Under the pieces are notes generated by a model. The model was not told the DNA's origin and did not search any database. It was given only the letters and a program-made list of their open reading frames with translations. A DNA stretch of 64,000 nucleotides from NCBI GenBank assembly GCA_951406725.2, contig OX597832.1, positions 52,824,001 to 52,888,000 of the forward strand, in the 5' to 3' direction. Below, one piece after another: positions 7,560-45,060 of the stretch (its first letter is position 1; the number at the start of each line of letters is the position of its first letter). Made by a program: the position numbers and the translations under genes. The stretch is from Octopus vulgaris. Taxonomy: Eukaryota.

Positions 7560-7710
7560 CTTGTTTATTCTTGGGTTGCGGATGATATCTATGCCTCGGG
7601 ATTTTGCTTGGCTCACATGTTTTGCTGAAGATTCTTTCCAGGTCAACCCAGCTGTCTTGAACATATCCATACTTTTGGTATGGATATTTCCAGTAGAGAC
7701 AGAAGTGGCT
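7560..7710 (-). CDS. ME: Malic enzyme first shared exon (151 nt, phase 2/0); in-frame internal ATGs at 7670 and 7664
   Basis: Acceptor ttttttcccctctgtttcag|A GCC ACT..., donor AAC AAG|gtatat. Translates ATSVSTGNIHTKSMDMFKTAGLTWKESSAKHVSQAKSRGIDIIRNPRINK, ending in the typical malic enzyme RGxxxxRNPxxNK motif. Confidence 0.92.
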
Positions 7711-7930
7711 CTGAAACAGAGGGGAAAAAAAAAGGACATGTCAATAAACAAACATGTTTGTCTAGATTCAGTAGAAATATTTTCACATATTGCATTTTCT
7801 AGCATACAATTCAAATTTTTCAGACCAAAATTTACAGTCAAAAAAAGTTAGGTTGACCTATACACCAAGATGATTTTGGAGGACCAAGAATTCCATGTGA
7901 AATGCAGGAGGAATTTAGAAGATAATGATT

Positions 7931-8320
7931 ATTATTTACATTTGACGGATATTTGTCCTCATCTTGCTTGTTGTTAACACAGTGCTTCGGCTGATATACC
8001 CTCCAGCCTTTATCAGGTGTCTTGGGGAAATTTTTGACCCTGGGTTCTCATTCTTAAGGTATTTTTTGATGTTATTATTATCATTATTATTATTATTCAG
8101 GTCACTGCCTGGAATTGAACTTGGAATTAGTAGCCTGCACTCTTCACCACAACGCCATATGCTTGTGGTTCGAAACCCAAGTTCGAAATTTTCCTAAGAC
8201 ACCTGATGATGGCTGGAGGGTATACCAGCTGAAATGCTATGTTAACAACAAACAAGATGAGGACAAATATGCATCAAATGTAAATAATGTACATAATTCC
8301 TCATCTCTTAAATATAGAAC
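7931..8320. mobile_element. Penelope-like non-autonomous element: inverted ~115-bp arms each with a degenerate hammerhead core, flanking a tRNA-like head
   Basis: Arms ~7931-8046 and ~8174-8288 are reverse complements. Plus arm gacac-CTGATGA-t-ggctg...cagct-GAAA-tgct-atgtt; minus-strand A and B boxes (tggcgttgtgg, gttcaattcc) at ~8105-8160. Confidence 0.6.
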
Positions 8321-8832
8321 TGGATAATGATGATGTTTGAATATTTGTTCTGGGTTCAAATTCCAGCAAGGTTGACTTCGCCTTTCATCCTTTTGGTGTT
8401 GATAAAATGAGTTGCAGTGGAGCACAGGTGTCAATGTAATCAACTTACCTCAACCCCATAAATTGCTGGCCTTGCGCAAAAATTTGGCACCGATATTTAC
8501 ACTACGTGTTTACACTATACATTACATCAACAACTTTTATGCTGAAAAAGATGAGATTGACATTTTTACATTTGTCAGGAAGTAAGAAAGTTTCGTGATA
8601 ATATTGTTCATAAACATACCCAAGAACAGGCTCAACTTGTAAGGTACAGTAATTATTAAAAAAAAAAAATGGAAAAAGCTCATAGAACAAGAAATTGATT
8701 TTTCGAGGGGTGGGGTGTCAGCTGTCCTGTGTTATTTAAAAACAAGTCTCAGAAATCAAGAAGTATTGTTTCCCTTCAAGATAATCACGATTAGTGGATG
8801 TGTTTAATCACTGACAATATACAAAAGGCTTA

Positions 8833-9155
8833 AGGAGGCAAGCTGGCAGAAACGTTAGTAAGCCAGGCGAAATGCTTTGTGGTATTTCGTCTGCTGTTAC
8901 GTTGCGAGTTCAAATTTCGCCGAGGTCGACTTTACCTTTCATCCTTTCGGGGTCAATAAATTAAGTACCAGTTACGCACTGGGGTCGATGTAATCGACTT
9001 AATACCTATGTCTGTCCTTGTTTGTCCCCTCTATGTTTAGCCCCTTGTGGGTAATAAAGAAATAGGTATTTCGTCTGTTTTTACGTTCTGAGTTCAAATT
9101 CCACCGAAGTCAACTTTGCCTTTCATCCTTTCAGGGTCAATAAATTAAGTACCAA
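8833..9155 (+). mobile_element. SINE family B dimer
   Basis: Head ggaggcaagctggcagaaacgttag, body, then junction aaagaaata|ggtatttcgtctg and a second partial body. Confidence 0.85.
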
Positions 9156-9484
9156 CTCCCTCCACCCTAAAAAAAAAAAAAAATTGGGGACCTTGTGCCT
9201 AGAGTAGAAAAGAATATACAACTGGCTCTGACAGTTTCAGAACAAAACCACCATATTTTATGGCCTACAAGTCAAATTCTTCAGCCTGATATTTACATCC
9301 AAGAAAGGTAAATCAACTTATATACCAAGATGACTCTGGAGGATGAAGAATTCCATATGAAAATGCAGTAGGATTAGGAAAGATAGTGTTTGAATGCTTA
9401 GACTACAAGCTTACACCATGTATTACATTGACTTGTATGCTGGAAAATATGGTATGGTCTAATATATATGTATATATACAATAT

Positions 9485-9780
9485 GTGGAGGTGCAATGGC
9501 CCAGTGGTTAGGGCAGCGGACTCGCGGTCGTAGGATCGCGGTTTCGATTCCCAGACCGGGCGTTGTGAGTGTTTATTGAGCGAAAACACCTAAAAGCTCC
9601 ACGAGGCTCCGGCAGAGGGTGGTGGTGATCCCTGCTGTACTCTTTCACCCCTCTTTCTTCTGTTGGCCTGCTCGCTTAGCCAGCAGGGTGGCGTCATTCG
9701 AAGGCTAAAACAATGCGAACGCATTGTGACCAGCGATGTGTAGCAACATCTGATGGTCTGGTCGGTCACATGATCACGTG
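9485..9780 (+). mobile_element. Young tRNA-derived SINE (separate family) with 11-bp target-site duplication
   Basis: A box tggcccagtgg, B-box-like gtttcgattcc, many intact CpGs; flanked on both sides by atatacaatat (9474-9484 and 9781-9791). Confidence 0.85.
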
Positions 9781-10007
9781 ATATACAATATATTTTACTT
9801 GTTTCAGTCATTAGACTGCGGCCATGCTTGGGCACCCCCTGGAAGAATTTTAGCCAAATGAATCGAGCCTAGTACTTATTTTATTTTAGAGACTGATACT
9901 TGTCCAGTTGGTTTCATTTGCTGAACTACTAAGTTGTGGAGATGTAAACACACCAACACTGGTTGTCAAGCGGTGAGGGTGGGATAAACACAGACACAAA
10001 CACACAC

Positions 10008-10278
10008 TGTTGTAATGTGTAACTGCTGTTGTACCATAGTTGCTGTTTTACGCTAGTTGCCATAGTAGTTACTAGTCACTGGATATTGCTGCATCTTCGT
10101 ACCGGAATAGTAATACATTAACTTCTTGTCTTACTATTGTTGATAGATCCATAAGACACTGACTAGAACTGTTGACTCAACTTTTCAACTCTTAACAACC
10201 GACTACCTTGACAACCGACTACTGGTCTATTTATAACCACTTTTTACCGGGAGTGGTATACAGTTTCACTATATAACA
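10008..10278 (-). mobile_element. Solo LTR (271 bp) inserted in the CA tract of a SINE
   Basis: Termini tgttgta...tataaca (TG..CA short inverted ends), 5-bp cacac on both flanks, TATA-like tataaataga on the minus strand. Confidence 0.65.
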
Positions 10279-11127
10279 CACACCTATGCCCACACAGTCA
10301 TGCCTATAAAGTTATTTAATCAATGATTTTCCTTTTATTGAACTCTGTCTGATGTACAAGCTGTATCTAATATGATCCATAATCATCGATTCTATAGTGA
10401 GCATTCATGTAAATATTTAAACAATATAATTTGCAATGATTTAGCTTTTCAATGAATAATTTATACTTTTGTATTATTCATCTGTTCTACTATTGTATGT
10501 GAAATGCAAGAAATGTATAACAAGCATTCTATCTATCTGAATGTCCCATCAAACATAAAAGTTTGTTTATCTATTATATAAAAATCCGTTCTGTCTGTGT
10601 GTGTGTGTGGCTTCTAGGATCTCGGGCATCTTTCATCCGATTGCACTCAAATTTGATATGTAGATACCGACGGTGTCAAAGCGTGTATAAGTCTTGAAAA
10701 AATTACAAAAATCGATTCCAGGTGAGAATGTGATCGATAAAGCCGTGGGAACATGCATTTGTATGAGCAAGTACATCAGCTGTTGTAATCGAGACTACAC
10801 ATACGCGAGAAAAATGCACATGCAGTTTGCGTAAAAAAAGCCGGCTGGCTTGAAATAATGACACAAAATGCAGTATATTTAAGAGACCAAAAATGTAAGA
10901 TGCAAAAGAGATATTTTCTTCAAACTTGGTATGAAGGAAGAAAAGACTATTTGGTTTCTCAAGAAGTTCTTTTTTTTGCTTTAACTTCGTTTAACAAAAT
11001 CAAAAATTTTATTGAGATAAAGGCATGCTTAATTATTTTTTAATGAAAAGAAAAACACTGATTGCTTTTTATTCAGCAGATATGATTCAGCACCGTCCAT
11101 TAGACGGGGAGGGGGAGGCGTTTTGCT

Positions 11128-11173
<46 letters not shown>

Positions 11174-11476
11174 CTTTTGACAGACTGGCAGGCGTGGCTG
11201 TGTGGTAAGAAGTTTGCTTCCCAACCACATGGTTCTGGGTTCAGTCCCACTGTGTGGCACCTGGGCAAATGTCTTCTACTATAGTTTAGAGGTGACCAAA
11301 GCCTTTTGAGTGGATTTGGTAGACAGAAACGGAAAGAAGCCCATTAACAACCAGTACTGATGTGTTTATGTCCCTGTAACTTAGTAGTAGTACTTGATTG
11401 GGCTTTTTTAATTATATCAGTCCCAGAAAGATAAAAGGCAAAACTGACCTAAACAAGGCTTGAACTCAGACCATAA

Positions 11477-11905
11477 GGTGCAGGTGTGGCTGTGTGGTAA
11501 AACGTTTGCTTCCCAAACCACATGGGCTCTGAATTCAGTCCCACTGCATGGAAACAAGGATAGGTGTCTTCTACTATAACCTTGGGCTGACCAAAGCCTT
11601 GTGAGTGAACTTGAGAGATGAAAACTGAAAGAAGCCCATCATATGTATGTATATGTGTGTGTGTGTAAGTATCTGTATGTGTATCTTTGCGTCAGTGTTT
11701 GTCCCCACCCTAACCATTTGACAACCAGTGCTGGTGTGTTTACATCCCTGTAACTTAGTGGTTCGTCAAAAGTGACCAATGGAATAAGTACCAAGCTTTA
11801 AAAAACATAAGTACTGGGGGTCAATTCATTCGACTAAAAATTCTTCAAGGCAGTGCTCCAGCATGGGCTGCAGTCTAATGACTGAAGCAAGAAAAAGACA
11901 AAAAG
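11477..11905 (+). mobile_element. SINE family A, diverged full-length copy (another partial copy at ~11187-11390)
   Basis: Head ggtgcaggtgtggctgtgtggt through tail gtgctccagcatgg...tgactgaagcaag. Confidence 0.8.
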
Positions 11906-12233
11906 ATCAAAATAAAAAGCTGGAAGCCATATTGTCCAACACTCAACTAACTCTACCAGTTCACCACTTTTGTCTTCCTTATATAATGCCAGGCCTGTGT
12001 TTAAATCAGTATTTGGGCTTGACCCAACTAGAATGTGTGACCCTTCTCTGATGAGACTGACCTTCGTTTCCAAAACCTTCACATACATAAAGGACTAAGG
12101 TACACAAGTCAAAAGAAAAACAGCACAGTTCTTTAGATTAGCGTTTAAGTGGAACCATAATTGTAAATACTTTTCTGTAGTTAGATTTTTAATTGCATTA
12201 AATCAGAGGCAATTAAACAACTAAATTAGTCGT

Positions 12234-12945
12234 TTAACCCTTTTGATACCAACTCACCTGAAACCACCTCTGGCTCTAGTACAAATGTCTTGTTTTCAAA
12301 AGTTCTGAATTACAATTTTCCACCAAACCTTAGACACAATTTATGTTCCTAACACTAGTTTAATGATAACTAAGTTATTTTACTAAATTCTTTGTTATAT
12401 TTAAAATTAATTGAAAGAAACACAGAGCATCTCAACAGAAATATGGTAACAAAAGGGTTAAAAAATATAATAGAGAAACAATTCTTAACCCTTTCGATAC
12501 CAACCTGGCTGAAACCACCACAGGCTCTGTAGTACAAATGTCTTGTTTTCAAAAGTTATGAATTAAAATCTTTCAGAAAACCTTTGTCACAATATATGTT
12601 CCTAACACTAGTTTAATGATAAAGTTCTTTTACTAAATTCTTTGTTATATTTAAAATTAATTGAAAGAAACACAGAGCATCTCAACAGAGATATGGTAAC
12701 AAAAGGGTTAAAAAATATAATAGAGAAACAATTCTTAACCCTTTTGATACCAACCCGGCTGAAACCACCACTGGCTCTAGTACAAATGTCTTGTTTTCAA
12801 AAGTTCTGAATTACAATCTTCCACCAAACCTTAGACACAATTTATGTTCCTAACACTACCTTAATGATAATTAAATTCTTTGTTATATCTAAAATTAATT
12901 CAAAGAAACACAGGGCATCTCAACAGAAATTTGGTAACAGTAAAG
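12234..12945. mobile_element. Three tandem copies of a piggyBac-type MITE with an identical spacer
   Basis: ttaacccttt(t)gataccaac...ggtaacaaaagggttaa units starting at ~12234, 12485 and 12735, separated twice by aaaatataatagagaaacaattc. Same family at ~16630-16855, ~30815-31025 and ~38953-39583. Confidence 0.85.
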
Positions 12946-13269
12946 CTTGTATTACAATCAAGCTTCCTAACAGGTGGTTTTCTGGTGGTTTAGGTAATCT
13001 ACACTATTACACTGTGTGGTATAGCTAAGCTGGCATCACCATCATTTTAATTCCCACTTTTTCATGCTTGCATAGGTTGGACAGAATTTGTCGAGGAAGG
13101 TTTTCTAAAGGGGGATGCCCATGCTATCTGCCAAGCCTCACCTGTTTTCAGGTAAGGTAATATTTCCACCTGACCAAACATATTTTCAAGGAAGTCTGGA
13201 AACAGAGAACACCACTTGCATGACAGTGACACTTGCTTACAACTATCACACCATATCAAAGCAAGGAGA

Positions 13270-13447
13270 CAGTGAGTGGCTTTGTGGTAAGAAGCTTGCT
13301 TCTCAATCACATGGTTCCAAGTTCAGTCCCAGCGCATGGCATCTTGGGCAAGTGTCTTCTTCTATAGCCTCAGGCTGACCAAAGCCTTGTGAGTGGATTT
13401 GGTAGATGAAAACTGAAAGAAGCCAGTCGTGTGTGTGTGTATGTATG

Positions 13448-13480
<33 letters not shown>

Positions 13481-13685
13481 TTGTTATTTGTGTCTGTCCC
13501 CCCCACCATCGCTTGACAACCGATGTTGGTGTATTTATGCCCCTGTCATTTAGTGGTTTGGTGAAAAAAAGACTGATAGAATAAGTACTAGGCTTACAAA
13601 GAATAAGTCCTGGGGTGGATTTGTTCGACTAAAGGTAGTGCTCCAGCATGGCTGCAGTCAAACGACTGAAACAATTAAAAGAATA
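13270..13685 (+). mobile_element. SINE family A copy, followed by fragments in both orientations to ~13966
   Basis: Matches the family A head, body and tail seen elsewhere in the window. Confidence 0.8.
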
Positions 13686-15574
13686 ATAGAATATATTTAT
13701 ATATTTAGCGGTTTGGCAAAAGAGACCGATAGAATAAGTACTGGGCTTACAAAAGAATAAGTCCCGGCCGCAGTCAAATGACTGAAACAAGTAAAAGAGT
13801 ATACATATACACACACAACTTCTTTCAGTTTCTGTCTACCAAATCCACTCACAAAGCTTTGGTTGGTCCAGGGCTTACAGTAGAAGACACTTGCCCATGG
13901 TGTCATGCAGTGGGATTGAACCCAAAACCATATGGTTGTGAAGGAAACGTCTTGCCACACAGCCATGTAATTAAAAATGAAACCAACAATAATGGTTGAA
14001 TGTAAAGAAAATAACTTGGCTTCTATGAATTAAGCAAACAAAACTCTAACATTTTCAAATTACTGAGCTATGATGAAATGAAATGACAGCCAAGAAACTG
14101 CATCTTTAATTTATCTTGACTGTTGTACATCATTATACGTTATAATATATATTTGATTGTTTTGATCTTGTTTAATTCTAGCTCTCTGACAGACATACAA
14201 GTCTATAAATTTCTCATCTGACAGTTTTTCAAATAAATAATTGCATTTTTGTTTACCATTCCAAATGAGTGTTCTTTAAGTCTTACTTGAAATGTCTAAT
14301 TAAAAAAAAAAAAAACGTTAACCAAATGGGTTGGTTTTAACAATAGGGTTAAAAACTATGTAATGGCATGTGACCAAGTGGTTGACAGGCTCATAACTGA
14401 AAGGTCATGGGATCAAATGGCAGATGAGTCAGCACATTATGTCCTTGAGCAAAGTACTTTATTTTTCAGCTCAGGTGATAATGAGAACCAACTGACTATT
14501 AATGCAGTTCTCTCACTATTACATATAAGTAGTGCTTATATGTAATATTAATACATAAGCACTATTTATGTATATTACTATTACAAAAGTATTATTAGAC
14601 CTTTCAATACTAATTAGGACTTTAGTATTTCCTATTATAACTTCAAATATATATTTTTTTAAATCAAACCTAATCTTCCCATTTTTGAAATTTTACAGCT
14701 CCTAAACATACTCTGTAATAATGGCTTCAAATTTTGGTACAAGGCCAGCAATTTCGGGGGATAGAGTCACAAAAGTCTGGTGCAGACTTCGGCCTGGCCA
14801 GCTATTTTGGTACCATCCTACTCATGCTAGCATGGAACATGGACATTAAATGATAATGATGATGATGAGTGTAAGCTGATTACATTGACTTCCAGTGCTC
14901 CATTGTACTTATTATATCAAACTCCAAAAGGATGGAAGGCACAGTCAACCTTGGCAGAATTTGAACTCAGAATGGAAAGACAGACAAAGTGTCACTAAGC
15001 ATTTTGCCCAGCACGCTAACGATTCTGCCAGCTTTCCGCCTTAAACATCATCATCATTGTTTAACGTCCGCTTTCCATGCTAGCATGGGTTGGACGGTTC
15101 AACTGGGGTCTGGGAAGCCAGAAGGCTGCACCAGGCCCAGTCTGATCAGGCAGTGTTTCTACGGCTGGATGCCCTTCCTAACGCCAACCACTCCGTGAAT
15201 GTAGTGGGTGCTTTTTATGTGCCACCGGCACGGAGGCCAGGCCAGGCTGGCAATAGCCACGATCAGATGGTGCTTTTTACATATTCTGTAATAATAACTA
15301 GATCATTGATACATCCATACATTGTGATGGATATCCAAAGATCAGTAGAATCACATCAAGTAATAAAAAGAAGAGTAGAGAGTTGGGTTAGATCCTTGGT
15401 GAACAAATTCATATCAACTAAGCATTAGTCTGATTGTAGCAATCTCAGGCCTAATCTGTTCAGTTTTCAGTCATTCATCAACATTTTGCATCCTCAATAC
15501 CCCTCAAAGTATGCAGCCTAGTCAAATGAAAAACAGAGCTGTCCTCAAAGCCTTTTCTTCATATTTGAAATATA

Positions 15575-16227
15575 TTGGGTTGGTGCATAATTATTGCGGC
15601 TTTTTTTCAACAAATTTTATAGGCATAGGAGTGGCTGTGTGGTAAGTAGCTTGCTTATCAACCACATGGTTCCAGGTTCAGTCCTACTGTGTGACACCTT
15701 GGGCAAGTGTCTTCTACTATAGCCTCTGGCCGACCAAAGCCTTGTGAGTGGATTTCGTAGACAGAAACTGAAAGAAGCTTGTTGTATATATGTATATATA
15801 TATATATGTATGTGTGTGTGTATTTGTTTGTGTGTCTGTGTTTGTCCCTCCCAACATTGACAACCGATGGTGTGTTTACGTCCCCGTAACTTAGCCACTC
15901 AGCAAAAGAGACCGATAGAATAAGTACTAGGCTTACAAAGAATAGGTCCTGGGGTCGATTTGCTTGACTAAAGGCAGTGCTCCAGCATGGCCACAGTGAG
16001 CTGACTGAAACAAGTAAAAGAGTAACAAAAACAGTAGCAATATTTAACAAAAACAACTTTAAACGATGGTCTCACCGTCTGCCAATCAAATGGGAAGCAG
16101 TAATTGAAGTAGATGGTGAATATGCTCCAGAATAATCATTTAAAGATGTTTTTGTTACATGCTGTTATTGTTTTGGTTGAATAAAATTTGTTGAAAAAAA
16201 GCCGCAAAAAATTATGCCCCAACCCAA
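15575..16227 (+). mobile_element. Mariner deletion derivative with TA target duplication, containing a nested SINE A (15621-16025)
   Basis: TIRs ttgggttggtgcataattattgcggcttttt / aaaaagccgcaaaaaattatgccccaacccaa, TA on both sides; remnant transposase C-terminus FKRWSHRLPIKWEAVIEVDGEYAPE* at ~16058-16135. Confidence 0.85.
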
Positions 16228-16889
16228 TAATTTATGCCATCTCATATGGATACAAATCTAAACTGTATCATCTGTCTGTTTCTTATTGAATATTTGCGGT
16301 GTCTTTGAGATGCTAATATTTTAAAGTGTTGAAGCTGATGAGCAGGTAGGATGTTAGCATGCCAGGCAAAATGCTTAGCGGCATTTCATCCGTCTTTATG
16401 TTCTAAGTTCAAATTCCACTGAGGCTGACTTTGGCTTTTATCCTTTCAAAGTTGATAAAATAAGTACCAGGTGAACACTGAGGGTCGATGTAATTGGTTT
16501 ACTCCCTCCAAAATTGCTGGCCTTGTGCCAAAATTTGAAATCAATATTTCATGGGTTTTGTGAGCTTGTACATGACTGGATCTATTTAAGAAGAAATAGT
16601 AAGCTTTTTCATTGAAAATTAGGGGCTTTTACCCTTTTGTTGCCATATTTCTGTTGAAAACTATTGCCTTTGTTTCAACTAATTTTGGAAACAAAGTTTG
16701 TAATTTTGTAAAAATCATCATCATTAAGCTGGTGTTTGGGAATAAATTAACATGATGTTTCGATGGCAGATTTAATTTGAAGTCACATTAAATCAGGAAG
16801 TTTGCATCATAAAACCAAAGGCAGCCTCAAGCAGTTTGGTATCAAAAGGGTTAAACATAACACTTTTTATGGTTCTTTCTTCCTTAAAC

Positions 16890-17135
16890 ATGGAAGCACA
16901 TGGCTTAGTGGTTAGGATGTAGGACTCATGATCATAACATTGTGGTTTCGATTCCTAGACTGGGTGATGCATTGTGTTCTTGAGCAAAACCCTTCGTTCC
17001 ATGCTGCTCCAGTCCACTCAGCTGGCAAAAATGAGTAATCCTGCAATGGACCAGTGTCCCATCGAGGTGGAGAATATAGACGCCACAGAAACCTGGAAAC
17101 TGACCCTGTGAGTCTATATGACTTGGGAAAGGTCT
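16890..17135 (+). mobile_element. CORE-type tRNA SINE (related copies ~3355-3530, 27692-27993, 46500-46750, 47290-47622, 54062-54295)
   Basis: tRNA-like head tggcttagtggttagg...gtttcgattcc followed by tgtgttcttgagcaaaac...ccactcagct...aaatgagta, resembling the CORE domain. Confidence 0.7.
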
Positions 17136-17467
17136 CATCCTTTATCATATTCTTCCTAAAAAGCTCTTCTACAGTGTCCATCTCTATACAAACCCCGATG
17201 AGAATATTATCAGAGCTTGGTGAATGTGCTGATTCAACCACCTTATCTTCCAGTTTCGTTTTCTATCTTTTATCTTGACTTTGTTCCACAAAACTTGGTC
17301 ACTTCTCTTTGTACTCCATCCCATAAATGATCAGCCATGCCTGATTTTTCTGTCTCCCAATAAATTATGGCTTTATGATATTCCGTTATCCTTACTTGGC
17401 GAGCTGGCAGAAACGTTTGCAGGCTGGGCGAAATGCTTAGCGGAATTTCGTCTGTCATTACGTCATA

Positions 17468-17880
17468 AGCGCAATAGTGACTGTGTGATAAGTAGCTTGC
17501 TTACCAACCACATGGTTCCGGGTACAGTCCCACTGCATGGCACCTTGGGCAAGTGTCTTCTACTATAGCCTCAGGCCGACCAAAGCCTTGTGAGTGGATT
17601 TGGTAGACGGAAACTGAGAGAAGCCTGTCGTATATATGTATATATATATATGTATGTGTGTATCTATGTTTGTGTGTCTGTGTTTGTCCCCACAACATTG
17701 CTTGACAACCGATGCTGGTGTGTTTACGTCCCTGTAACTTAGCGGCTCGGCAAAAAGAAACCGATAGAATAAGTACTAGGCTTACAAAGAATAAGTCCTG
17801 GGGTCAATTTGCTCGACTAAATGTGGTACTCCAGCATGGCCGCAGTCAAATGACTGAAATAAGTAAAAGAGTAAAAGAAT
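17468..17880 (+). mobile_element. SINE family A full-length copy
   Basis: Continuous match to the family from head to gtaaaagagtaaaaga tail. Confidence 0.88.
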
Positions 17881-17984
17881 CACATAGGCATCCCATAAAA
17901 TATCATTTTATGTTTATTTTCAACTTGAAAAGGTTTATTATTTTTATTAATTGACATTTTTATGTTTCAGGTTCCATATGTGAC

Positions 17985-18960: not shown

Positions 18961-19304
18961 GATATTCACATCATAATAATTAATAATCTGAATGTATAAT
19001 TTTAGATTTAAATAAATTTTAATGATTATAAGGGTGTTTATTTCTTATTTCTTTATTGTCCACAAGGGGTTAAACATAGATGGGACAAACAAGGATAGAC
19101 AAAGGGATTAAGTTGATTACATCGACCCCAGTGCATAACTAGTACTTAATTTATCGACCCTGAAAGGATAAACGGCAAAGTCAACCTCGGCAGAATTTGA
19201 ACTCAGAACGTAATGGCAGGGGAAATACCGCTAAGCATTTCACCCGGCGTGCTAACGTTTCTGTCAGTTTATGGTCTATTTATTTCTGTCATGTCTGTGT
19301 ATAA

Positions 19305-19530: not shown

Positions 19531-19604
<74 letters not shown>

Positions 19605-19606
<2 letters not shown>

Positions 19607-25464: not shown

Positions 25465-25514
25465 CTTAGAGTTCGCTGCGAAAGTGGCCATATCTTTGTT
25501 AGAAAGGAACTCAT
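25465..25514 (-). CDS. ME: Putative proximal first coding exon of malic enzyme, encoding the start of a mitochondrial targeting peptide (MSSFLTKIWPLSQRTLR)
   Basis: Minus strand gataccATG AGT TCC TTT CTA ACA AAG ATA TGG CCA CTT TCG CAG CGA ACT CTA AG|gtacaa. The phase-2 donor matches the 7710 acceptor; the peptide is Ser/Thr/Leu/Arg/Lys-rich with no acidic residue; it lies in unique, CpG-retaining sequence. Confidence 0.7.
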
Positions 25515-26911
25515 GGTATCAGCTGTAATAGATTTTTATATACCTGGAGCTGCCTGGCTGCGAAGAGAGAAGTCGAAAGCACGTTGGCCTTCCACACAAA
25601 ACACTATGCCACACTAATTCTCCTCCTCCTCCTCCTCCTCCTTCTTCCCTACATGCCACTCTAAATCTCTTCCTCTTTCTTCTCCCCACTTATGCCTGAC
25701 TAAGTCTTCTCTTCTTCCTTCATGTCACATGACTACTGCTGCCGTCACCACCACATTCATCATCACCACCACCATCATCATCACCAGTGGCAGTATCTTC
25801 TCTGTTTTTCTCCATCGTTTAATAATGTTTCATATTTCCCATGCATTATCTCCAACATTTTGTGTCCCCTAATTACATAACAATCATCTTACATAATATA
25901 TTCTCACAATGTATAATCTGTTAATGCGTTTTACTTGTTTGACTGGTCAAACGACATACCATCTCTACATGGTCAGTCAAATCTCAAATAATACATCGCA
26001 GTCTTAAAAAAAGAAACAAACAATAAGTTGGATAATGCAGTACTAGATAAAAAAATAAAAAGACGAGATGGTCATGCTTGGAATGTCTTTGGTCATGTGT
26101 CTGCTTAGTCCGCTTGTCTAGGACTCAACAGCAACAACTATACTCTCACAGTAGCAGCGAGAGAAAGTTTGGGCGTCCCTATACAATAGAGTCGGAAATT
26201 ATCTGAAGCAGAAAAAATATCAATTTCTTCAATGTTTTAAGGATTGTAGATTACGATTCTGCAAAATAAATAAATAAAATAAAAGTTTGGTGGGGAAGAT
26301 ATTTTTCAGTTTTGGCATTTTCAATTTTTTTTTTTTTTTCACTTGTTTCAGTTATTGAACTGGTACCATGCAGGTGCACTGACTTGAAGGGTTTTATTCG
26401 AACAAATCAACGCCAGTACTTATTTGTTTAAAGTCTGATAATTATTCTATCGGACTCTTTTTGTTGAACTGCTAAGTTACGTGGCAAAAACAAACCAATA
26501 CCAGTTGCCAGGGTAGACACACGTGTGTGTGTATGACGGTTTTTTTTTTTTTTTAGTTTCCGTCTACCAAATACACTCACAAGGCTTTGTTCGAACCGGG
26601 TCTATAGTAGAAGACACTTGCCGAAGGTTGGAAATCAATGATAAAGGGACTAAATCATAAAATGTGGTTGATCTATTTTACTTCAATGTTTTTTACCCCC
26701 TTTTAATTATTAAAATAAACTTTTTCATGGTAAGAGATTGGAAGAAGAAAAACAACAAATTTGGTCTTCAACACGAGTACACACACACATAGCTATACAT
26801 ACCTATACATACCATATGCAGGTAGACATGAACACAGTGACAGATAACGCCTGTCACTTTCAGTTTGCAGTTTGTTGCCCTTGAACTGCCAAAAAATAAT
26901 AATAATAATAT

Positions 26912-33526: not shown

Positions 33527-33562
<36 letters not shown>

Positions 33563-34414
33563 AGGCAGTGAGCTGGCAGAATCATTAGCATGCCGGGCAA
33601 AATGCATACCAGTATTTCATCTGCCATTACATTCTGAGATCAAATTCTACTGAGGTCGACTTTGCCTTTCATCCATTTTTTTCTTTGGGCGGGGGGGAGG
33701 GGTTGATAAATTAAGTACCAGTCAAATAATGGGGTCGATGTGATCAACTTACTCCTTCTCCACAAATTTCAGGCCCTGTGCCTATAGTAGAAAGGATTAT
33801 TATTATCATTATTATTTGACAAAATTTTGCATAAAGGTGGTGCTCCAGCATGGCCACAGTCAAATGACCGAAACAAATAAAAGAATATATTTACAATTCA
33901 AAATGGCTTCCCTTTGCTTTCACTATAGCCTTTACCCTTATGTTTGGACAAGGGGTAAATTATCATGTTTAAAAATGGGCAAATGCATATGTGTAAGTCA
34001 CACCCCGTTTGTACATACAGACACGCATGTATGTAAGCAAGTTTTAGAAGCACATATATATGATTCTGCTTTGTAAATTCCTAGTAAATTATTTTTATCA
34101 ACAACTTAATTGTTATCATTGTCTAAAAGTCCGTTCACTGGCCAAAGTCTACTTTGGCTGATAATCAACATGAACATTAGCTGAGTAATTAAAGAACTGA
34201 TATAATTAGAGCAAGTTTGTTAATGGTACCGCCAATAGATAATGCATTCATTGTTTGCTTTGGCCATGCTGGAGCACTGCCGGCGAATGTGTGTTGTCAC
34301 ATAGCATTAAATTCCTGCGATCTCGTCTCATAGTCAAACAGTTTGTGACACTTCTATTATTTCAATGTATAACTGCAAATATTGTTTGATCAAATATAGT
34401 CCAAAGTTGATATT

Positions 34415-35060
34415 CATGTATGTATGTGCATACGTAGATGCATGTGTGTATGTGTATATGCACATGTGTATGTTAATGTGTACATACATATATGTATATA
34501 TTTGTATAAACATATGCATGTATGGGTGTGTGTATAAATATGCATGCGTGTGTATACATACAAATATGAGTGTGTGTATACAAATATGCATGTGTACATA
34601 CATATGTGTGTGTACATATAAATATGTGTGTGTGTGTGTTTATACACATATATATATATGCATGTGAGTATGTATATACATATATGCATGCATGCATGTG
34701 TGTACATACATATATGCATGTGTGTACATACATATATGCATGTGTGTACATACATATATGCATGTGTACATACATATATACATGCATGTGTGTACATACA
34801 TATATGCATGAGTGTGTGTACACACATATATGCATGTGTGTAGATACATATATGCATGCGTGTGTACAAACATATATGCATGCGTGTGTACAAACATATG
34901 CATGTGCATGTACATACGTGTGTGTGTGTGTGTATATACGTGTGTGTGTGTACATATGTGTGTACATACGTGTGTGTGTGTGTACATACATGTGTGTGTG
35001 TGTGTATGTGTACATACGTGTGTGTGTGTGTGTGTACATACGTGTGTGTGTGCATGTGTG
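34415..35060. repeat. Complex alternating purine-pyrimidine microsatellite (TG/TA/CA with tgca and tgtaca nodes)
   Basis: Read directly from the sequence; it is the source of the many H/T/Y/V/C-rich ORFs in the track. Confidence 0.95.
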
Positions 35061-35524
35061 TAAAAAAACAAGCAGTAAAAAAAAAATGAAAGAAATATGC
35101 CAAATCTTGATAAAAAAAAGAGGAATTTAATATCTAAAATGCTGTCATTTCACACCTTTTTACTGGAATGACAGCATCAAGTTATGGAGTGACATTTACA
35201 TATTCCAGAACTTCAATTTTCCTCTTCCCTAAATCTTTTATTTTCCTGTGAACTTTCGTCTTAGTTTCACTGGCAGATACTTAATAATTTGACGAGTGAC
35301 CTACAACTTCTTCCAGACAATTAGGGATTGGTGGTGTCTCTTCTAAACAACCCTACTCATATGTACAAACAAGTTACAAGGCATTAAAAAGAAATCTTTT
35401 CTGAGGTTTTTGAAATTATGTCTCAATACCTTCTCTTGTTTGTTCTGTTGCTGCTGTTTTTTTTTCTCTTTGGTCAACCTCAAGCAGGTTTTTTAGATTG
35501 CATGAAAGCTTGTTCATAAGCAGT

Positions 35525-36950
35525 CATGTTCATACATACATACATACATACATACATACATACATTATATGCATTACATTGTTTGTGTTACATACATACT
35601 TTACGTACCATACATAACATATATACTTACATACATACATATACACACATATTACATTACATACATTATGCATTACATACATTATGCATTATATTACATG
35701 TTACATACCGTACATTATACATATATACATACATAACACTACATTCATACATACATTACATTCATGCATACATTACATTCATGCATACATTACACTCATG
35801 CATACATTACACTCATACATTACATTCATACATACATACATGACACTCATGCATACATTACATTCATGCATACATGACACTCATGCATACATGACACTCA
35901 TGCATACATTACATTTATGCATACATGACACTCATGCATACATTACATTCATGCATACATGACATTCATGCATACATGACACTCATGCATACATGACACT
36001 CATGCATACATTACATTTATGCATACATGACACTCATGCATACATGACACTCATGCATACATTACATTTATGCATACATGATACTCATGCATACATTACA
36101 TTCATGCATACATTACACTCATGCATACATGACACTCATGCATACATGACACTCATGCATACGTTACATTCATACATACATGACATTCATACATACATGA
36201 CACTCATGCATACATTACATTCATGCATACATTACATTCATGCATACATTACATTCATGCATACATTACATTCATGCATACATTACATTCATGCATACAT
36301 TACATTCATGCATACATTACATTCATGCATACATTACATTCATGCATTCATGACATTCATACATACATAACACTCATGCATACATTACATTCATGCATAC
36401 ATTACATTCATGCATACATTACACTCATGCATACATTACATTCATACATACATGACAATCATGCATACAAGACATTCATGCATACATTCATGCATACATT
36501 ACATTCATGCATACATTACATTCATGCATACATTACATTCATACATACATGACACTCATGCATACATTACACTCATGCATACATTACATTCATGCATACA
36601 TTACATTCATGCATACATGACACTCATGCATACATTACACTCATGCATACACGACACTCATGCATACATTACACTCATGCATACATTACACTCATGCATA
36701 CATTGCACTCATGCATACATGACACTCATGCATACATGACATTCATACATACATAACATTACATTCATGCATACATTACATTAATGCATACATGACACTC
36801 ATGCATACATTACATTCACGCATACATTACATTCACGCATACATTACATTCATACATACATGACACTCATGTATACATAACATTCACGCATATATTACAT
36901 GACACTCATGCATACATTACATTACATACATAGATAACATTCATACATAA
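35525..36950. repeat. 17-bp minisatellite (CATTACATTCATGCATA, variant CATGACACTCATGCATA)
   Basis: Period of 17 nt visible from ~35740 to ~36930; ORFs repeat every 17 aa (3 units). Grades from (CATA)n at the left end. Confidence 0.95.
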
Positions 36951-37677
36951 GGCAGCAAGATGGCAGAATCAGAAGCACATTGGGCAAAATGTGGTATTTC
37001 ACCTGTCTTTCACATTCTAAGTTCAAATTCAGCTGAGGTCAACTGTGCCTTTTGTCCTTTCAGGATCAATAAAATAAGTACCAGTTGAATACTGAGGTTG
37101 ATGAAATTGACTCCCCATCCTGCCCCTAAGTTTGCTGGCTTTGTGCCAAAATTCAAAACCAATATTAATAACAAGAGTACCCATTGTCATGATTATGAGG
37201 TCAATATAGACAACTGAATGCTTTCCCTAAATTCTAACAGTAAATTCCCCTCAATAGACTTTGACCCTTTAGCATTCAGATCTCTCTGTCAAATGTAATG
37301 TTTATTTATTCACGTTGATTTGAATTAGTCAAGCCTTTACTTGTAGCTTTGAGATTTCAATGACGTGGTTGTCTATTTTTAGGGTAATATTGTAGGGTCA
37401 GTGTGAGAAGCTGGATATGGCCAGTTTGAAGATAAAACAGATGGCCTGTTATGGCTGGATGTGGCCAGTTTAAATGCTAAAAGGTTAGTAATCTTAAAAC
37501 AAGGAGTGGAAAACATACCATTTCAAGACCTAAATTTAGATTAATTTCCCTTTCAATAAATACAAAATGGCTACAGGCTCAAATGGTGATAAAATGTTTC
37601 CTTTGATAACATACACACGTTATGAGTCATATCAGACATGACTTAATAGAAACTTTTTTCTCCTTGCTTCAAAATTA

Positions 37678-39845
37678 TACACAATGTGATCAAAAGTATC
37701 TGGATACCCCATGAAATGTGTTTTTTCATAAAGGGTAACACAGTAGATCACAGAGGATGCTGCAGTACTACCGTTTACTGAAAGGCGGCGAGCATGCAGA
37801 ACCGTTAGCATGCCGGGCGAAATGTGTAGCCGTATTTCGTTTGTGCTTACGTTCTGAGTTCAAATTCCGCCGAGGTCGACTTTGCCTTTCATCCTTTCGG
37901 GGTCGATAAATTAAGTACCAGTTACACACTGGGGTCGATATAATCGACTTAATACGTTTGTCTGTCCTTGTTTGTCCCCTCTACGTTTAGCCCCTCGTGG
38001 GTAGTTAAGAAATAAGTACTACCGTTTACCATGCAGAATCAGTCAAAACCGTCCAACCCATGCTAGTATGGAAAACGGCCGTTAAATGATAATGATGATG
38101 ATTATGATGAATATATGGTCAGCGATCTCAGTAGCCAACAGACAGCACTAGGCAGCAGAAGAGGACATTCTACGGAACTAATGAACTTTCAACATGGTCA
38201 GGTGGTTGGGTGCCACTTATCTATAAGCCCGTGTGTGAGATTTCCACTCTCCTGAACATCCCTAAGTCCACTGTTTCCAATGTAATAGTGAAGTGGAAAC
38301 AGGAGGGGATGTGTACAACCCAAAAGTGTTCAGCTTGATCTCCCATGTTAACCCCTAGAGACCTTCGAATGTTGAAGAGGATTGTACAGCATAATTGTCT
38401 ATCATCAATCACCACCGTCACACAGGAATTCCAAACCTCAGCAAGATCTACTCCAAGCACCATAACTGTTCAGCACAAGGCGTTAAAACTTGGTTTCCAT
38501 GGAAGAGCAGTTGCCCATAAGCCAGACATCCTACAGACAAATGCCCAACGCTGCCTCATGTGGTGTAAAGAATGTGAAACCGGACTATAGAACAGTGAAA
38601 AACTGTTGTGACAATCCAATGGTAGGCTGTGGGTGTGGCAAATACCAAGTAAATGATATGCACCAGCCTGTATACTGCCGATTGTGAAATTCGGCAGTTG
38701 TGGGGTCATGGCGTGGTCAGGTTTCTCCCAGAGGGGACTTGGACTCCTTGTTGCTTTATGTGACACTGTCGTGGCACAAGCTTACACTGACATTTTAATC
38801 ACTTTCAGTTTACTAACCATCGCAGACCAGTTTCAGGATGACTATTGTCTTTCAACATAACCAAGCACCCATCCATGCTACACAGGTTGTAGGGGTGTGG
38901 TTTGACAACAACAATGTCCCACTAATGGACTGACCTGTACAGAGTCTTGATTTTAACCCTTTTGTTACTCTTTACTCTTTTACTTGTTTCAGTCATTTGA
39001 CTGAGGCCATGCTGGAGCACCACCTTTAATCGAGCAACTCGACCCCGGGACTTATTCTTTTGTAAGCCCAGTACTTATTCTATCAGTCTCTTTTGCCAAA
39101 CCGCTAAGTAACGGGGACATAAACACACCAGCATCGGTTGTCAAGCAATGCTAGGGGGCAAACACAGATACACAAACACACACACGCATATATATATACA
39201 TATATACGACGGGCTTCTTTCAGTTTCCGCCTACCAAATCCACTCACAAGGCTTTGGTTGGCCCGAGGCTATAGTAGAAGACACTTGCTCAAGGTGCCAT
39301 GCAGTGGGACTGAAACCGGAACCATGTGGTTGGTAAACAAGCTACTTACCACACAGCCACTCCTGTGCCTGTATTTATTTTGAGATGCTCTGTGTTTCTT
39401 TCAATTAATTTTAAATATAACAATGAATTTAGTAAAATCACCTAGTTATCATTCAGCTAGTGTTAGGAACATAAATTGTGACTAAGGTTTGGTGGAAGAT
39501 TTTAATTCAAAATTTATGAAAACAAAACATTTGTACTACAGAGCCAAAGCCGGTTTCAGACGGGTTGGTATCTAAAGGGTTAAATCCCATTGAACATATC
39601 TGGGATGTTTTGGAATGCTGACTTCATGCTAGGCCACACCAACATCAATACCCTTGCTCATTTTGGTGCTTTGTGAAGAATGGACTGCCATTTCCCAAGA
39701 AACCTTCCGCCGCCTATGAGAGAGAGGAGGCTGTTATCAAGGCTAAAGATGGGCCAACACCATATTGACTGCCAGTGTTCCTGATGGAGGGTGACCTAAA
39801 CTTGTATTTCATTATCAAGTGTGTGTCCAGATACTTTTGGTGGTG
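37678..39845 (+). mobile_element. Degenerate near-full-length Tc1 element with nested SINE B (37782-38015), piggyBac MITE (~38953-39583) and SINE A (~38965-39372)
   Basis: TIR cores caaaagtatctgga (37692) and tccagatacttttg (39826). Transposase remnants EISTLLNIPKSTVSNVIVKWK, LTPRDLRMLKRIV, LGFHGRAVAHKP, VMAWSGF, and PVQSLD/PIEHIWDVL split at a TTAA by the MITE. Confidence 0.85.
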
Positions 39846-39945
39846 GTGGTGGGTGGTGGTGGTGGTGGTGATGGTAGTAGTAGTAGTAGTGATGGTAGTG
39901 GTGGTGATGATGGTAGTAGTAGTAGTAGTGATGGTAGTGGTGCTG
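39838..39945. repeat. (GGT/AGT/GAT)n trinucleotide repeat
   Basis: Read directly; gives the poly-V/T/H ORFs. Confidence 0.9.
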
Positions 39946-41842
39946 CCATATATTAAATGGATGTGTAACATGGACCCTCACTCAATCCACTATCATATCA
40001 TCTCTTCGCAATTGCTTAACCATTCATCGATCCATCCATCATTTCCATCCACTATTCCTGGGAGAGTCATGGGGGGAAAAGCCCTTAGGTACCTCCTCCA
40101 TAGGGTTGTATCAAAAGCAACTGTCATTAGACATTCCAGCTAGACTCCCAAGCACGACCAACTAAGACAATGGATATCCAGCCATCTTACTCTTGGTATA
40201 CTGGCAGAAACGTTAGCACGCCGGACGAAATGCTCAGCGGTATTTCGTCTGCCGTTACGTTCTGAGTTCAAATTCCGCCAAGGTTGACTTTGTCTTTCAT
40301 CCTTTTGAGGTCGATTAAATAAGTACCAGTTATGCACTGAGGTCGATATAATCGACTTAATCCGTTTGTCTGTCCTTGTTTGTCCTCTCTGTGTTTAGCC
40401 CCTTGTGGGTAGTAAAGAAATAGGTATACCCCTAGGTCTCCTGCCATTTGGCTCAGCTTGAAGAATCTGCATATAAATAAAAGTCATGTGATTTTTATTC
40501 CTTTTACAGGTGGGGTGGCCTGAGCTGGAGCCCCACTATAAAAAGAAAAAAATCAATAGCCAAGTAGAGTTGTATTATATTTATAAACTGTTGCTATGGT
40601 ATTAGAGAAGTTGGATCAAATAACTTTATTTCCTTTATACAAACAGCTGCAATGAGAACAAAAACATATATATATATAAAAATAAAAAATAATTTGCTGT
40701 CCACTGGCAGATACTGTATTATTAGCTTAGTGAAGCAGTTAGTTTGGTAGATATTTTAAGCCGAGACCACAATTCCTATCAATTAGCACTTACTATTATT
40801 CAGAAGCTACTAAATTCACAATTGCCAATGTTGATTTTGTTGACTAAGATTACCAACCAAATGGGAGACAGGGTCAAAAACTAGTGAATGGTGGTGATTT
40901 ATCAAGTTTTGTAGGTCAACAACAAATTCTGGGTTTAGTCAGGACAGAACTGAAGCTTGTTTCATGACCATGTGGTCTTGGGTTCAGTCTCACTGTGTAG
41001 CACATTGAACAAGGGGCTTTTACTAAAACTCTGGATTAAATAAAGCTTTGTGAGTGGATCTGGTAGACAGAAACTGAAAGAAGCCTGCTGTATATGTGTG
41101 TAGGTTAATGTACCCTTGCCTGGACATCACATGATGGTTGTAAATGGTCATCATTCATTTCCAGTCTTCTGCAAAAAAACTTATCTGGCAATGGGAAAAT
41201 ATAATTTTACTTGGACACAGGTGAGGGCTGGTGAAAGGAAAAGCATCCAGCCACAGAAAATCTGCTTCACCAAACTCAATCTGACATGGAAAAGGGGACA
41301 TCAGTTGATGATGATGGTGTTGGAATTTGTAAGATATGGATTGCGTATGAATAATATTTAATGATTACTAGAAAATAGTTAACGATTCAGTATCTTAAAC
41401 GGTGTTTCAAGTATGGGTGAACAAAAAGGTGTTTGATTAGAAGGGAACAAGAACTTTAGGGGCACAAACAGTTCTGCTGATATACATTACTTACTTAATT
41501 CCACAATATTTTTTGCTTAGACTCCTTTATTAAAACGACAAACCTCTGTGTTCATGATCTTCCATCCACTTGATGGAATATACATTTGTTCCTCAACCAC
41601 TTCCAATCGAGAACTTCATTTTTAGGTTAGACATACTTTGACAGCATTTCATTTTCCTTAGCAAATTAAGTTTGGTCACAGAGGGACTGGAACCAAAGAA
41701 TTTTGTAGTGTCATTTGGAAATAGAATTTAACTTTTTTCAACTCCTCCCCTAATGTTGTTTATAGCAATTGGAATATTGTACAATCCAACTGTTTTGAAG
41801 TAACTCAGGAGAGCTAGTTATTTTCAGACCTTACAGATATAC

Positions 41843-42258
41843 CTTATTTCTTTATTGCCCACAAGGGGCTACACATAGAGGGGACAAACAAGGACAGACA
41901 AAGGGATTAAGTCGATTACATCGGCCCCAGTGCGTAACTGGTATTTAATTTATCAACCCCAAAAGGATGAAAGGCAAAGTCGACCTCGGCAAAATTTGAA
42001 CTCAGAACGTAACGGCAGACAAAATACCTATTTCTTTATTACCCACAAGGGGCTAAACACAGAGGGGACAAACAAGGACAAACATAGGTATTAAGTCGAT
42101 TACATCGACCCCAGTGTGTAACTGGTACTTAATTTATCGACCCTGAAAGGATGAAAGGCAAAGTCGACCTCGGCAGAATTTGAACTCAACGTAATGCAGA
42201 CAAAATACCGTTAGGCATTTCACCTGGCGTGCTAACGTTTCTGCCATCTCGCCACCTT
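41843..42258 (-). mobile_element. SINE family B dimer
   Basis: One head at ~42258 and two bodies joined at aaataccta|tttctttatt (~42022-42040). Confidence 0.88.
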
Positions 42259-42816
42259 AAGATATACCTCTCCATACCTCCTGGTTTTGTTTGTAGCCTT
42301 GATAAAACAACATCCTGAAATCACAGTTTAATCTACAATTGCTCCATTAATGGCAGTTAGTTCAGTTGAACACACTTTTTGATATTATTTGGTGGTATGT
42401 AAAAAATACCCAGTACACTTAAGTGGTTGGCATTAGGAAGGCATCCAGCCATAGAAACCATGTCATAACAGGCAATTGGAGACTGGACAGCTCCCAGCTG
42501 GTCAGCCCTATGTCAATCCGTCCAACCCATGCCAGCATGGAAAGTGGATGTTAAATGATGATGATGCTGTTATTGTTCTTGGGTTTAGTCCTGATCAAGC
42601 AACTTATGGCATGTAGGTGAATGATTATGTGTATGAGGGTGTAGTGTGGCAGTCTTGACAAACAAGTCATTGATTAAATGACCAGGTGTGTCCTACAGAT
42701 GTGTCATTGCAGGTAAACTATGCACTAATTAATTGCATGGAGGCCAGTGTGACAGTCTTGACATGTAGGTAGTTGATTAAATGACCAGATGAGTCCAATA
42801 GACATATCATTCCAGG

Positions 42817-43209
42817 TTACTCTTTACTCTTACTCTTTTCCTTGTTTCAGTCATGTGACTGTGGCCATGCTGGAGCACCGCCTTTAGTCAAGCAAATCGA
42901 CCCTCATGACTTATTCTTTGTAACCCTAGTACTTATTCTATCGATCTCTTTTGCCGAACCGCTAAGTTACGGGCACATAAACACACTAGCATCGGTTGTC
43001 AAGCGATGTTGGGTGGGGGAGGGCAAACACAGACACACAAACACACACATATATACAACGGGCTTCTTTCAGTTTCCGTCCACCAAATCCACTCATGAGG
43101 CTTTGGTCGGCCCGAGGCTATAGTAGAAGACAATTGCCCAAGGTGCCACGCAGTGGGACTGAACCCGGAACCATGTGGTTGGTAAGCAAGCTACTTACCA
43201 CACAGCCAC
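42817..43209 (-). mobile_element. SINE family A full-length copy
   Basis: Continuous match to the family in reverse orientation. Confidence 0.88.
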
Positions 43210-43661
43210 GAAAGCCAGTGTGACAATCTTAACAGGTCACCCGGCTATACAGTATACATTAGTACATCTGTTAATTCTAGTGGTAGTTACAATGGAAGAA
43301 GAGAATAGGGCAACGGTTATTGTCACTTCGCACTTATCATTTACGGTGTACATACAAGTATAATGTTTGGTGGTGGTGGTGGTGGGAGAGTTAATTAAAC
43401 TAATTATGCTAGTGGTATTTCTACTTGTAAGTGTTATATATATTTACCTTGACTGATTGGGAAACGTAGTATGTTTTTATAATAGTTTCTTTCTATTTTT
43501 TTCTTTTTCTTGGTGAGAGTGATTGAGCATAAAGTGTGTGGACTATGATGGCTGGAGATTGTCACAGTAACGACATGGACACACTGACATGTAACAGGTG
43601 GCAACTTTAATTTGTTATTATTGATATTTAGCCTCAGGTGGTCTATCAACGATATATATAT

Positions 43662-43724
<63 letters not shown>

Positions 43725-45019
43725 TGTATATATAATAAAATACGAAATGGGACAAGAACGCAAAACATCCGGACAACTAGGCGATACAAAAGGGACAACA
43801 GAACATCCGGATAGACGATAAAAAAAAACACAAGGACGGGTCATTCGAAGCCTTTTTATCTTCATTCAAGAATCGGATCATCCTCGCAATTTCGGCTGAT
43901 TAATCTTGAGATTGCTCCAATCTGGCCATAAGGCTGGTTAGCCGGTTTTTATGTCCTATAAGTGACCAAGGTTACAATACTCTCAATGAACAGGACACTG
44001 GCCCGTTGCCGGATTCAGAGGCCGGGTTTTTTTGTTTTTTTTTTGAGGGGAGGGTACAAGTCGACTACATCAACTCCAGTACTTCACTGGTACTTTATTC
44101 TATCGACTCCGATAGGATGAAAGGCTGTCTTTGAACTCAACATAAACATTTTAAAAAGCCGAAAGAAACGCCGCCAAGCAATTCGTCCGACGTCTTAAGG
44201 ATTCGGCCACCTCGCCGCTGAACGATAATAGCCGTCATCAAAAACAACCCAGGCTACGACTAACTAACTCATCCTTTGTTTTCAGTCATTGTGTATCTAA
44301 GACTACATTTATTCAGTTTCTAGACAGTAGGGAGTGACGTGAAGAAAATTTAATCTCTTGTTTGTCCGTTATTGTGCATCGATTTTCTTTCAGCTGCGCT
44401 ACATGACGTTTGTCAAACAGCGAACATTCTCACTGCAGTGGACTTTTTACTTAACAGTAAATACACATAACGCTGCTGCCAATTTGTCGCAACGAACTTT
44501 CCACTGTTACATAAATTATTAGGGGCGAGCTGTGAGAATTTAGCGGATTTGAGAATTTCACTAGAATCGTAATTTTTTTCCTTTTTTTTTTTTTGTATGT
44601 AAAAATAAATATTCAATTGTTTATACATGAAAAAAAAAACAAAATAAACAAACGCTCCTATAATTAGCGAAATTTAAATCTTTTAACAAATTTCAAGTCG
44701 AAACAGTTTGAAATGATAGATCTATAATTAAAATATATATATATATATATTTGTGTGTGTGTATAACGTAAAAGAAAACGTTATCTCAAATGACAAAATA
44801 GAATTTAAGAATGTAAATTATCTTCAATATTCCGATATAGCATAGAAATTACATAATTCTGGTCGTTAGCAAAATAATTTTCAATATATTGGGTCTCCGT
44901 CCACACCCACAGAATGTATAAAAACAATAAATATACACGCACGTATTATAAACATATACACCACCCACGTATTATATAAATGTAGACAGATTGAACTTAT
45001 GTCTAAATTATAAACTTAC

Positions 45020-45060
45020 TTCAGAACGTTTGGACTTGTCCGTTTTTTATCGTTCTCCAT
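45020..45060 (-). CDS. ME: Putative distal alternative first coding exon of malic enzyme (MENDKKRTSPNVLK)
   Basis: Minus strand attATG GAG AAC GAT AAA AAA CGG ACA AGT CCA AAC GTT CTG AA|gtaagt. Consensus donor, phase 2 matches the 7710 acceptor, A at -3 and G at +4. It sits in unique sequence near the point where CpG depletion ends. Confidence 0.65.

Follow-up and report, generated by a model that had tools for sequence, protein, structure and literature searches.

The locus described here raises the question of whether one gene, by a choice between its first exons, can supply an enzyme to two compartments of the cell. The window, i.e. the whole stretch of DNA analysed, comprises 64,000 nucleotides (nt) of Octopus vulgaris contig OX597832.1 (assembly GCA_951406725.2, forward-strand positions 52,824,001 to 52,888,000), and contains, on its minus strand, the 5' half of the Octopus NADP-malic enzyme gene, the remainder of which lies past the window start; positions are given in window numbering (Table 1). 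The exons in the window match the O. vulgaris records CAI9737010.1 (600 amino acids, aa) and CAI9737011.1 (603 aa), also at sites where O. sinensis and O. bimaculoides have other residues. Upstream of an exon 2 common to both records lie exons A, C and B, which are 37, 26 and 18 kilobases (kb), respectively, from it. Our interpretation, to which we give a probability of about two-thirds, is that the choice between these exons sets the compartment of the enzyme, with the exon B promoter yielding a mitochondrial precursor, and exon A, together with exon C or leaky scanning, yielding a cytosolic enzyme.

In the mechanism that we propose, the alternative upstream exons would each be spliced to the one shared exon 2. 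The exon B peptide and the first 13 residues from exon 2 would together make an acid-free amphipathic presequence, enabling import and cleavage near the IHTKS stretch. Exon A would replace the Tom20-binding half of this presequence with a short, acidic and weakly constrained peptide, so that import is predicted to be abolished. Use of exon C (represented by one contig), or leaky scanning, would lead to translation from an exon 2 methionine, the presequence being skipped. Reading back from exon C, the nearest stop is reached before any in-frame ATG; a transcript carrying this exon would therefore be expected to start at Met 7670, the context of which is A at -3 with G at +4, and to encode 573 aa.

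Exons A and B do not stand out by sequence alone, in that 618 mini-exons running from an ATG to a phase 2 GT (5-40 codons) are present upstream on the minus strand, among which A ranks 3rd and B 70th by a crude donor score, the weights of which are approximate. Outside evidence does single them out. The A and B N termini have a protein record each in O. vulgaris (CAI9737010.1 and CAI9737011.1), Octopus sinensis (XP_029648078.1 and XP_029648079.1) and Octopus bimaculoides (XP_014767925.1 and XP_014767933.1), and these records account for six of the seven members of the Octopus cluster. The two isoforms are, in consequence, already annotated in databases and are not new. The O. vulgaris genome paper, in its available part, describes alternative forms as coming from PASA updates with Iso-Seq and RNA sequencing (RNA-seq) (PMC10700109), and the two O. 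vulgaris records appear to belong to that annotation. The ATG of exon A lies in a strong context (A at -3, G at +4); in all three Octopus species it is the earliest in-frame start, and the frame runs into exon 2 uninterrupted by a stop.

A preliminary description of the window had proposed a gene with two ATG-bearing mini-exons, the phase 2 donors of which restore the reading frame at the 7710 acceptor. The two donors (at 45020 and 25465) are confirmed, the MSSF and MEND peptides given for exons B and A are reproduced on reading these into exon 2, and both isoforms are annotated in the three Octopus species. Both proposed first exons are thus real, but the description was incomplete, since it overlooked the third upstream exon (donor 33895) and the exon 2 methionines at 7670 and 7664. 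The possibility that A and B are chance mini-exons is ruled out by the three-species annotation together with junction contigs.

Contigs from 4 out of 23 runs were compared with window positions 7200-8100; their RNA status is presumed, the contigs skipping the flanking introns. The upstream exons were read from contig loose ends of at most 30 letters, and contig depth was not used for ranking isoforms. The join of exon 2 to exon 3 is present in all four runs. The 25465 to 7710 junction predicted for exon B is found in two of the four, from two studies, each time with 102 further letters; if these are collinear, both contigs start at 25568, within a pyrimidine run, the end being the same in both studies. 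Both of the complete 5' ends recovered from the four runs are exon B. The 33895 to 7710 junction, i.e. that of exon C, is present in one run, where the 17 nt match exactly, have a single match in the window, and are followed there by GT. In one run a contig starts exactly at 7710. In a de Bruijn assembly such a start is to be expected if the exons joined upstream end in different bases, which would imply at least one upstream partner other than exon B. Overall, mutually exclusive upstream exons on a shared exon are seen in the B and C junctions and in the separate A and B records.

Two further arrangements were tried and rejected. Exons A and B cannot belong to one coding transcript, as A spliced to the acceptor-like site at 25557 meets a stop before the B ATG, and exon C is not a 17-nt coding micro-exon, its length not being a multiple of three and no pyrimidine tract preceding it.

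Mitochondrial presequences are described as basic and amphipathic, with a hydrophobic-x-x-hydrophobic-hydrophobic Tom20 motif (PMC4585086, available part). Targeting features were assessed by simple counts on related sequences (charge, first acidic residue, hydrophobic moment, motif) rather than with a trained predictor. The B form has a charge of +3 and no acidic residue in its first 25 residues, its first acid being at position 32, with a hydrophobic moment of 0.68 and a Tom20-type motif, consistent with the preliminary view of the MSSF peptide as acid-poor and presequence-like. The A forms (+4/-2) have their first acid at position 2, moments of 0.41-0.50 and no Tom20-type motif; their acids are at positions 2 and 4, or 2 and 8, which is the pattern of vertebrate ME1 and not that of ME3. 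The internal-methionine form (+5/-2) likewise lacks a Tom20-type motif. The first 25 residues are acid-free in all three B forms, 18 of the 21 non-cephalopod orthologues and all six vertebrate ME3 proteins labelled 'mitochondrial', but in none of the three A forms and none of 11 vertebrate ME1 proteins, the rows being related and not independent. By charge, first acid, moment and motif, therefore, one N terminus has presequence features and the other does not.

The distribution of CpG dinucleotides bears on where transcription may begin. The observed/expected (o/e) CpG ratio reaches 1.55 at 44540-45540, around exon A, the highest of 126 windows, and exon A stands at a boundary between a ratio of 0.42 over 1-43500 and one of 0.78 over 45501-64000 (comparison of 43 bins of one kb with 18, p=5e-7, the bins being non-independent). 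A weaker peak of 0.93, the top of 86 overlapping gene-body windows, lies just inside the intron after exon B. Octopus methylation is reported, in the available part of PMC9476566, to be on the bodies of broadly expressed genes and scant at promoters; in the supplement of that work, the O. bimaculoides orthologue (matched through its gene id; a 603-aa model) has methylation pattern 2, i.e. a methylated body with an unmethylated start. Because of the CpG peak and this methylation pattern, exon A is likely to be the outer boundary of the gene and its main, constitutive promoter. The CpG pattern and the contig ends fit two promoters; promoter use, localisation and regulation are our inferences, whereas the exons, their frames, the B and C junctions, the annotated A and B proteins and the clade placement are direct observations. 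The preliminary proposal that promoter choice sets the compartment accords with the B and A features, the CpG pattern and the contig ends; its two-way form does not hold, as there are at least three upstream exons and a predicted internal start. With respect to the sequence around the start of exon B (25560-25575, minus strand), the contig ends (at 25568 if collinear) lie in TTCTCTCTT, which we take to resemble a TCT/5'TOP-type start; downstream there is a TATA-like run at ~25533-25542, and 25558 is the last base of an acceptor-like CAG.

Between O. vulgaris and O. bimaculoides, identity is 9/14 in exon A, 16/17 in exon B and 521/536 in the body of the protein. Exon A differs from the body in its divergence (p=6e-5), with its ATG and frame being retained. 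The fast divergence of the A peptide fits a peptide the job of which would be not to be a presequence, but it would also fit a nearly neutral one. The proteins of the cuttlefish cluster open with a B-like sequence that shares LTK or LTN, so exon B is the ancestral start. The second exon 2 methionine (7664) is retained in cuttlefish-cluster proteins; more generally, the cephalopod rows all retain a methionine somewhere from the HTS stretch to the start of the catalytic part, whereas only 3 of 17 non-cephalopod rows have one, at varying places.

Several observations weigh against the proposed switch. The exon A junction (45020 to 7710), which the preliminary description had predicted along with that of exon B, is present in none of the four runs among the loose ends listed, beside which stand 65 further, undisplayed rows. 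Exon C is represented by 17 nt in one contig; its donor is weak and CpG does not peak there (rank 78 of 126 windows). The CpG o/e ratio in the window centred on exon B is 0.67, ranking 43 of 126. The difference in divergence between exons A and B (p=0.067) is not significant alone. The Tom20-type motif is also present in 11 of 21 orthologues and two of 11 ME1 proteins, making it a weak discriminator. The presequence had been assigned to the MSSF exon, which holds for its first half; the second half is in early exon 2, where the HT[KS]S stretch lies, so the A form retains that half, as well as four basic residues in its first 25. A MEND-like start is absent from all nine full or near-full cuttlefish-cluster proteins. 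A homologue search with the A N terminus returned the Octopus cluster only (one of four candidates), a result that says little because even the cuttlefish protein was missed.

The strongest alternative, which we regard as unlikely, is that the additional exons merely reflect regulatory variation in promoter use or minor transcripts. The protein would then be mitochondrial in practice, the A form being imported all the same or scarcely produced, and any cytosolic enzyme would come from an unretrieved paralogue. The retained IHTKS half and +4 basic residues of the A form, its missing junction, and the assignment of both complete 5' ends to exon B can all be read in this way, and other molluscs do have a dedicated cytosolic-type gene, as described below; there is also a second malic enzyme match in jumbo squid. 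This alternative is less easily reconciled with the strong context of the A ATG, which is kept with its frame in three species, with an arrangement of acidic residues in the A peptide that follows ME1 rather than ME3, and with the CpG peak at exon A. A second alternative, which we consider improbable, accepts the switch but makes the MEND peptide incidental, exon A being in effect 5' untranslated region and the cytosolic enzyme starting at the conserved exon 2 methionine in all coleoids. The rapid divergence of the A peptide would then be expected; the methionine is kept in octopus and the cuttlefish cluster, where one 572-aa record (P0132, possibly a truncated contig) begins at it, and 573 aa is a length typical of the mollusc cytosolic-type clade (572-586 aa), but in three species the A ATG, in its strong context, precedes every other in-frame start and no stop separates it from exon 2. 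Lastly, a three-residue basic run is kept in the A peptides of both species, but three basic residues are no more than a minimal nuclear signal and conservation elsewhere in the peptide is poor, so that its being a positive signal for another place, e.g. a weak nuclear signal from this basic cluster, is very improbable.

The interpretation that exon choice sets the compartment has consequences that depend on the place of the gene in its family. Both isoforms contain PF00390 (malic) and PF03949 (Malic_M), far above cut-off. The core motifs YTPTVG, GKLSLY, FEDF, FNDDIQGT and GAGEA, which have catalytic roles, are present and are shared with ME1 and ME3. Ser346, Lys347 and Lys362 are described as cofactor determinants in the available part of PMC3183043; at these positions, aligned to ME3 with the numbering transferred by eye, the octopus enzyme has Ser, Arg (conservative for Lys) and Lys. 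The best match to a solved structure is ME3 (8e76, 791 bits), followed by ME1-type enzymes (766-777) and then ME2 (~710). By these sequence comparisons the octopus enzyme is assigned as an NADP-type malic enzyme, of the ME1/ME3 type.

A ribbon-worm query retrieved a second molluscan malic enzyme type. With N termini trimmed, FastTree analyses of 59 and 307 rows separate the mollusc proteins into two clades, with support of 99 each; a quick IQ-TREE run gives 89 for one of these, the presequence-type clade. The latter has 76 rows of ~605 aa (chiton, bivalve and gastropod members, 600-612 aa) and includes all 15 cephalopod rows, the octopus gene among them. The other, cytosolic-type, clade has 52 rows of ~575 aa with acidic starts, the first acid being reached by residue 12 in all eight named rows with intact starts (two truncated models being omitted). 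Both types are present in Patella, Gigantopelta, Lottia, two oysters, Physella and Mytilus. The division of cytosolic and mitochondrial functions among paralogues, which the preliminary description gave for vertebrates, is thus correct for them, but is not special to them, bivalves and gastropods having their own. The vertebrate ME1 and ME3 proteins group with each other, separately from those of molluscs, which means that the octopus gene cannot be equated with either of them in particular.

The 52 rows of the cytosolic-type clade include no named cephalopod protein (in the best 120 of 8000 candidates, with the clade near the cut-off and three rows being without a taxon), and this absence is weak evidence for a loss. 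The O. bimaculoides Trinotate table (PMC9476566) has, among its listed rows, one for malic enzyme, which is the octopus gene; it gives no gene count. The second malic enzyme match in jumbo squid, from skin proteomics, comprises one peptide and is to a scallop record of unplaced clade (PMC7024357, available part). It is possible, and we propose it tentatively, at somewhat below even odds, that coleoids lost the molluscan cytosolic malic enzyme gene and rebuilt a cytosolic form from the mitochondrial paralogue, by acquiring a new in-frame methionine behind the presequence and then, in Octopus, an outer promoter with an acidic exon that overwrites the Tom20-binding half. Such a loss and rebuilding, if true, would be the reverse of the usual splitting of functions after duplication.

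The mechanism is of a known kind, and what is new is only the possible loss of a gene with compensation. Human GLRX2 uses either of two first exons, Ia or Ib, one encoding a mitochondrial targeting sequence and the other giving cytosolic or nuclear forms (PMC7503856, available part). The octopus gene resembles it in having, within one gene, alternative first exons on a shared core, one of them predicted to be mitochondrial; by contrast the enzyme is different, the presequence is split over an alternative and a shared exon, and localisation is a prediction. Human fumarase and yeast cysteinyl-tRNA synthetase reach two locations through longer and shorter transcripts (PMC11653698, available part), such that the presequence start codon is included or left out; the product outside mitochondria arises from an in-frame methionine further downstream, as is predicted for octopus exon C; octopus differs in having separate exons 18, 26 and 37 kb upstream, one with its own acidic peptide. 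Vertebrate ME1 is cytosolic and ME3 mitochondrial, and Drosophila Men and Men-b are separate genes, according to the available part of PMC6471790; the octopus gene belongs to the same family and keeps the NADP-type residues, but it is one gene with alternative starts where those are separate genes. As in the two-gene system of bivalves and gastropods, the octopus gene lies within the presequence-type clade, but it itself carries alternative acidic starts. No paper on the bivalve/gastropod malic enzyme clades was found, their description here coming from our trees. Searches aimed at animal malic enzymes with alternative first exons, or with dual targeting, likewise listed none, as judged by title and abstract start, most subscription and older biochemical papers lying outside their range.

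Alternative N termini are also seen in other animal groups. In amphioxus malic enzyme (P0037, P0038, P0043, P0168, P0169, P0173) three different basic N termini meet the body at a common NK/YK|GMAF point, which suggests three alternative first exons. Bees (P0293-P0295, P0298, P0303-P0311, P0314, P0318) and Daphnia (P0263, P0264), and also P0247 and P0250, have several annotated N termini; those of arthropods include long basic forms and short internal-methionine forms with early acids, so that an octopus-like pattern may be common in arthropods. Given the amphioxus, bee and Daphnia records, the arrangement is not unique to octopus. Three members of the cytosolic-type mollusc clade (P0239, P0251, P0356) have a basic extension before the usual methionine, and possibly represent the reverse case, with a cytosolic-type gene gaining a presequence. 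In the P0034 cluster (P0192-P0205) two N termini occur on identical bodies, joined at NK|GMAF, neither being presequence-like. A 1012-aa Bulinus record brings malic enzyme and CCR4-NOT subunit 2 proteins together in the P0015 cluster, and probably represents neighbouring genes fused into one gene model.

Table 1. Positions of the malic enzyme gene features within the window
Feature	Position	Strand	Remarks
CpG-rich zone round exon A	44001..46000		Edge of the CpG-depleted gene body; likely outer, unmethylated promoter
Exon A, coding part	45020..45060	-	ATG at 45060; 13 codons + 2 nt; acidic MEND start; donor GAA/GTAAGT
Exon C, 3' end	33895..33911	-	17 nt in contig; donor ATT/GTAAAT; joined to 7710 in 1/4 runs
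Exon B	25465..25568	-	ATG at 25514; 16 codons + 2 nt; predicted presequence first half; donor AAG/GTACAA
Exon B, 5' end	25568	-	Holds if the 102 loose contig letters are collinear (30/102 displayed)
Exon 2, shared	7560..7710	-	151 nt; acceptor TTTCAG before 7710; covered exactly in 4/4 runs
Exon 2, content	7560..7710	-	Presequence-like second half (IHTKS), internal methionines, enzyme start
Exon 2, in-frame Met codons	7662..7670	-	7670 (context AAAAGTATGG) and 7664; predicted 573/571-aa presequence-free form
Exon 3	3590..3873	-	Malic enzyme N-terminal domain
Exon 4	1312..1387	-	Boundaries by splice signals and protein match
Exon 5	1054..1215	-	Gene runs on beyond the window start

The window also contains repeated sequences. 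Just upstream of exon C are a 1.4-kb tandem array of a 17-mer in 76 copies (35531-36950) and an AT/GT array (34500-35060). A highly repeated element adjoins exon 2 (7931-8036) and draws hundreds of contigs, and intronic tandem arrays with units of 184-250 nt are present at 5027-5789, 12234-12939 and 41839-42209. Interrupted frames at 52377-53575 (minus strand) and 4262-4417 resemble decayed LINE (long interspersed nuclear element) retrotransposon sequence. None of the eight other open frames of the window that were tested has a Pfam match.

If our interpretation is correct, one octopus gene would feed both cytosolic NADPH and the mitochondrial flux from malate to pyruvate. The balance between the compartments would then be readable from first-exon usage in existing RNA-seq data, and gene-level expression counts and knock-downs would mix both compartments. 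The added value is evolutionary: as two genes share this work in other molluscs, the cephalopods may offer a clean example of the loss of a paralogue being offset by dual targeting.

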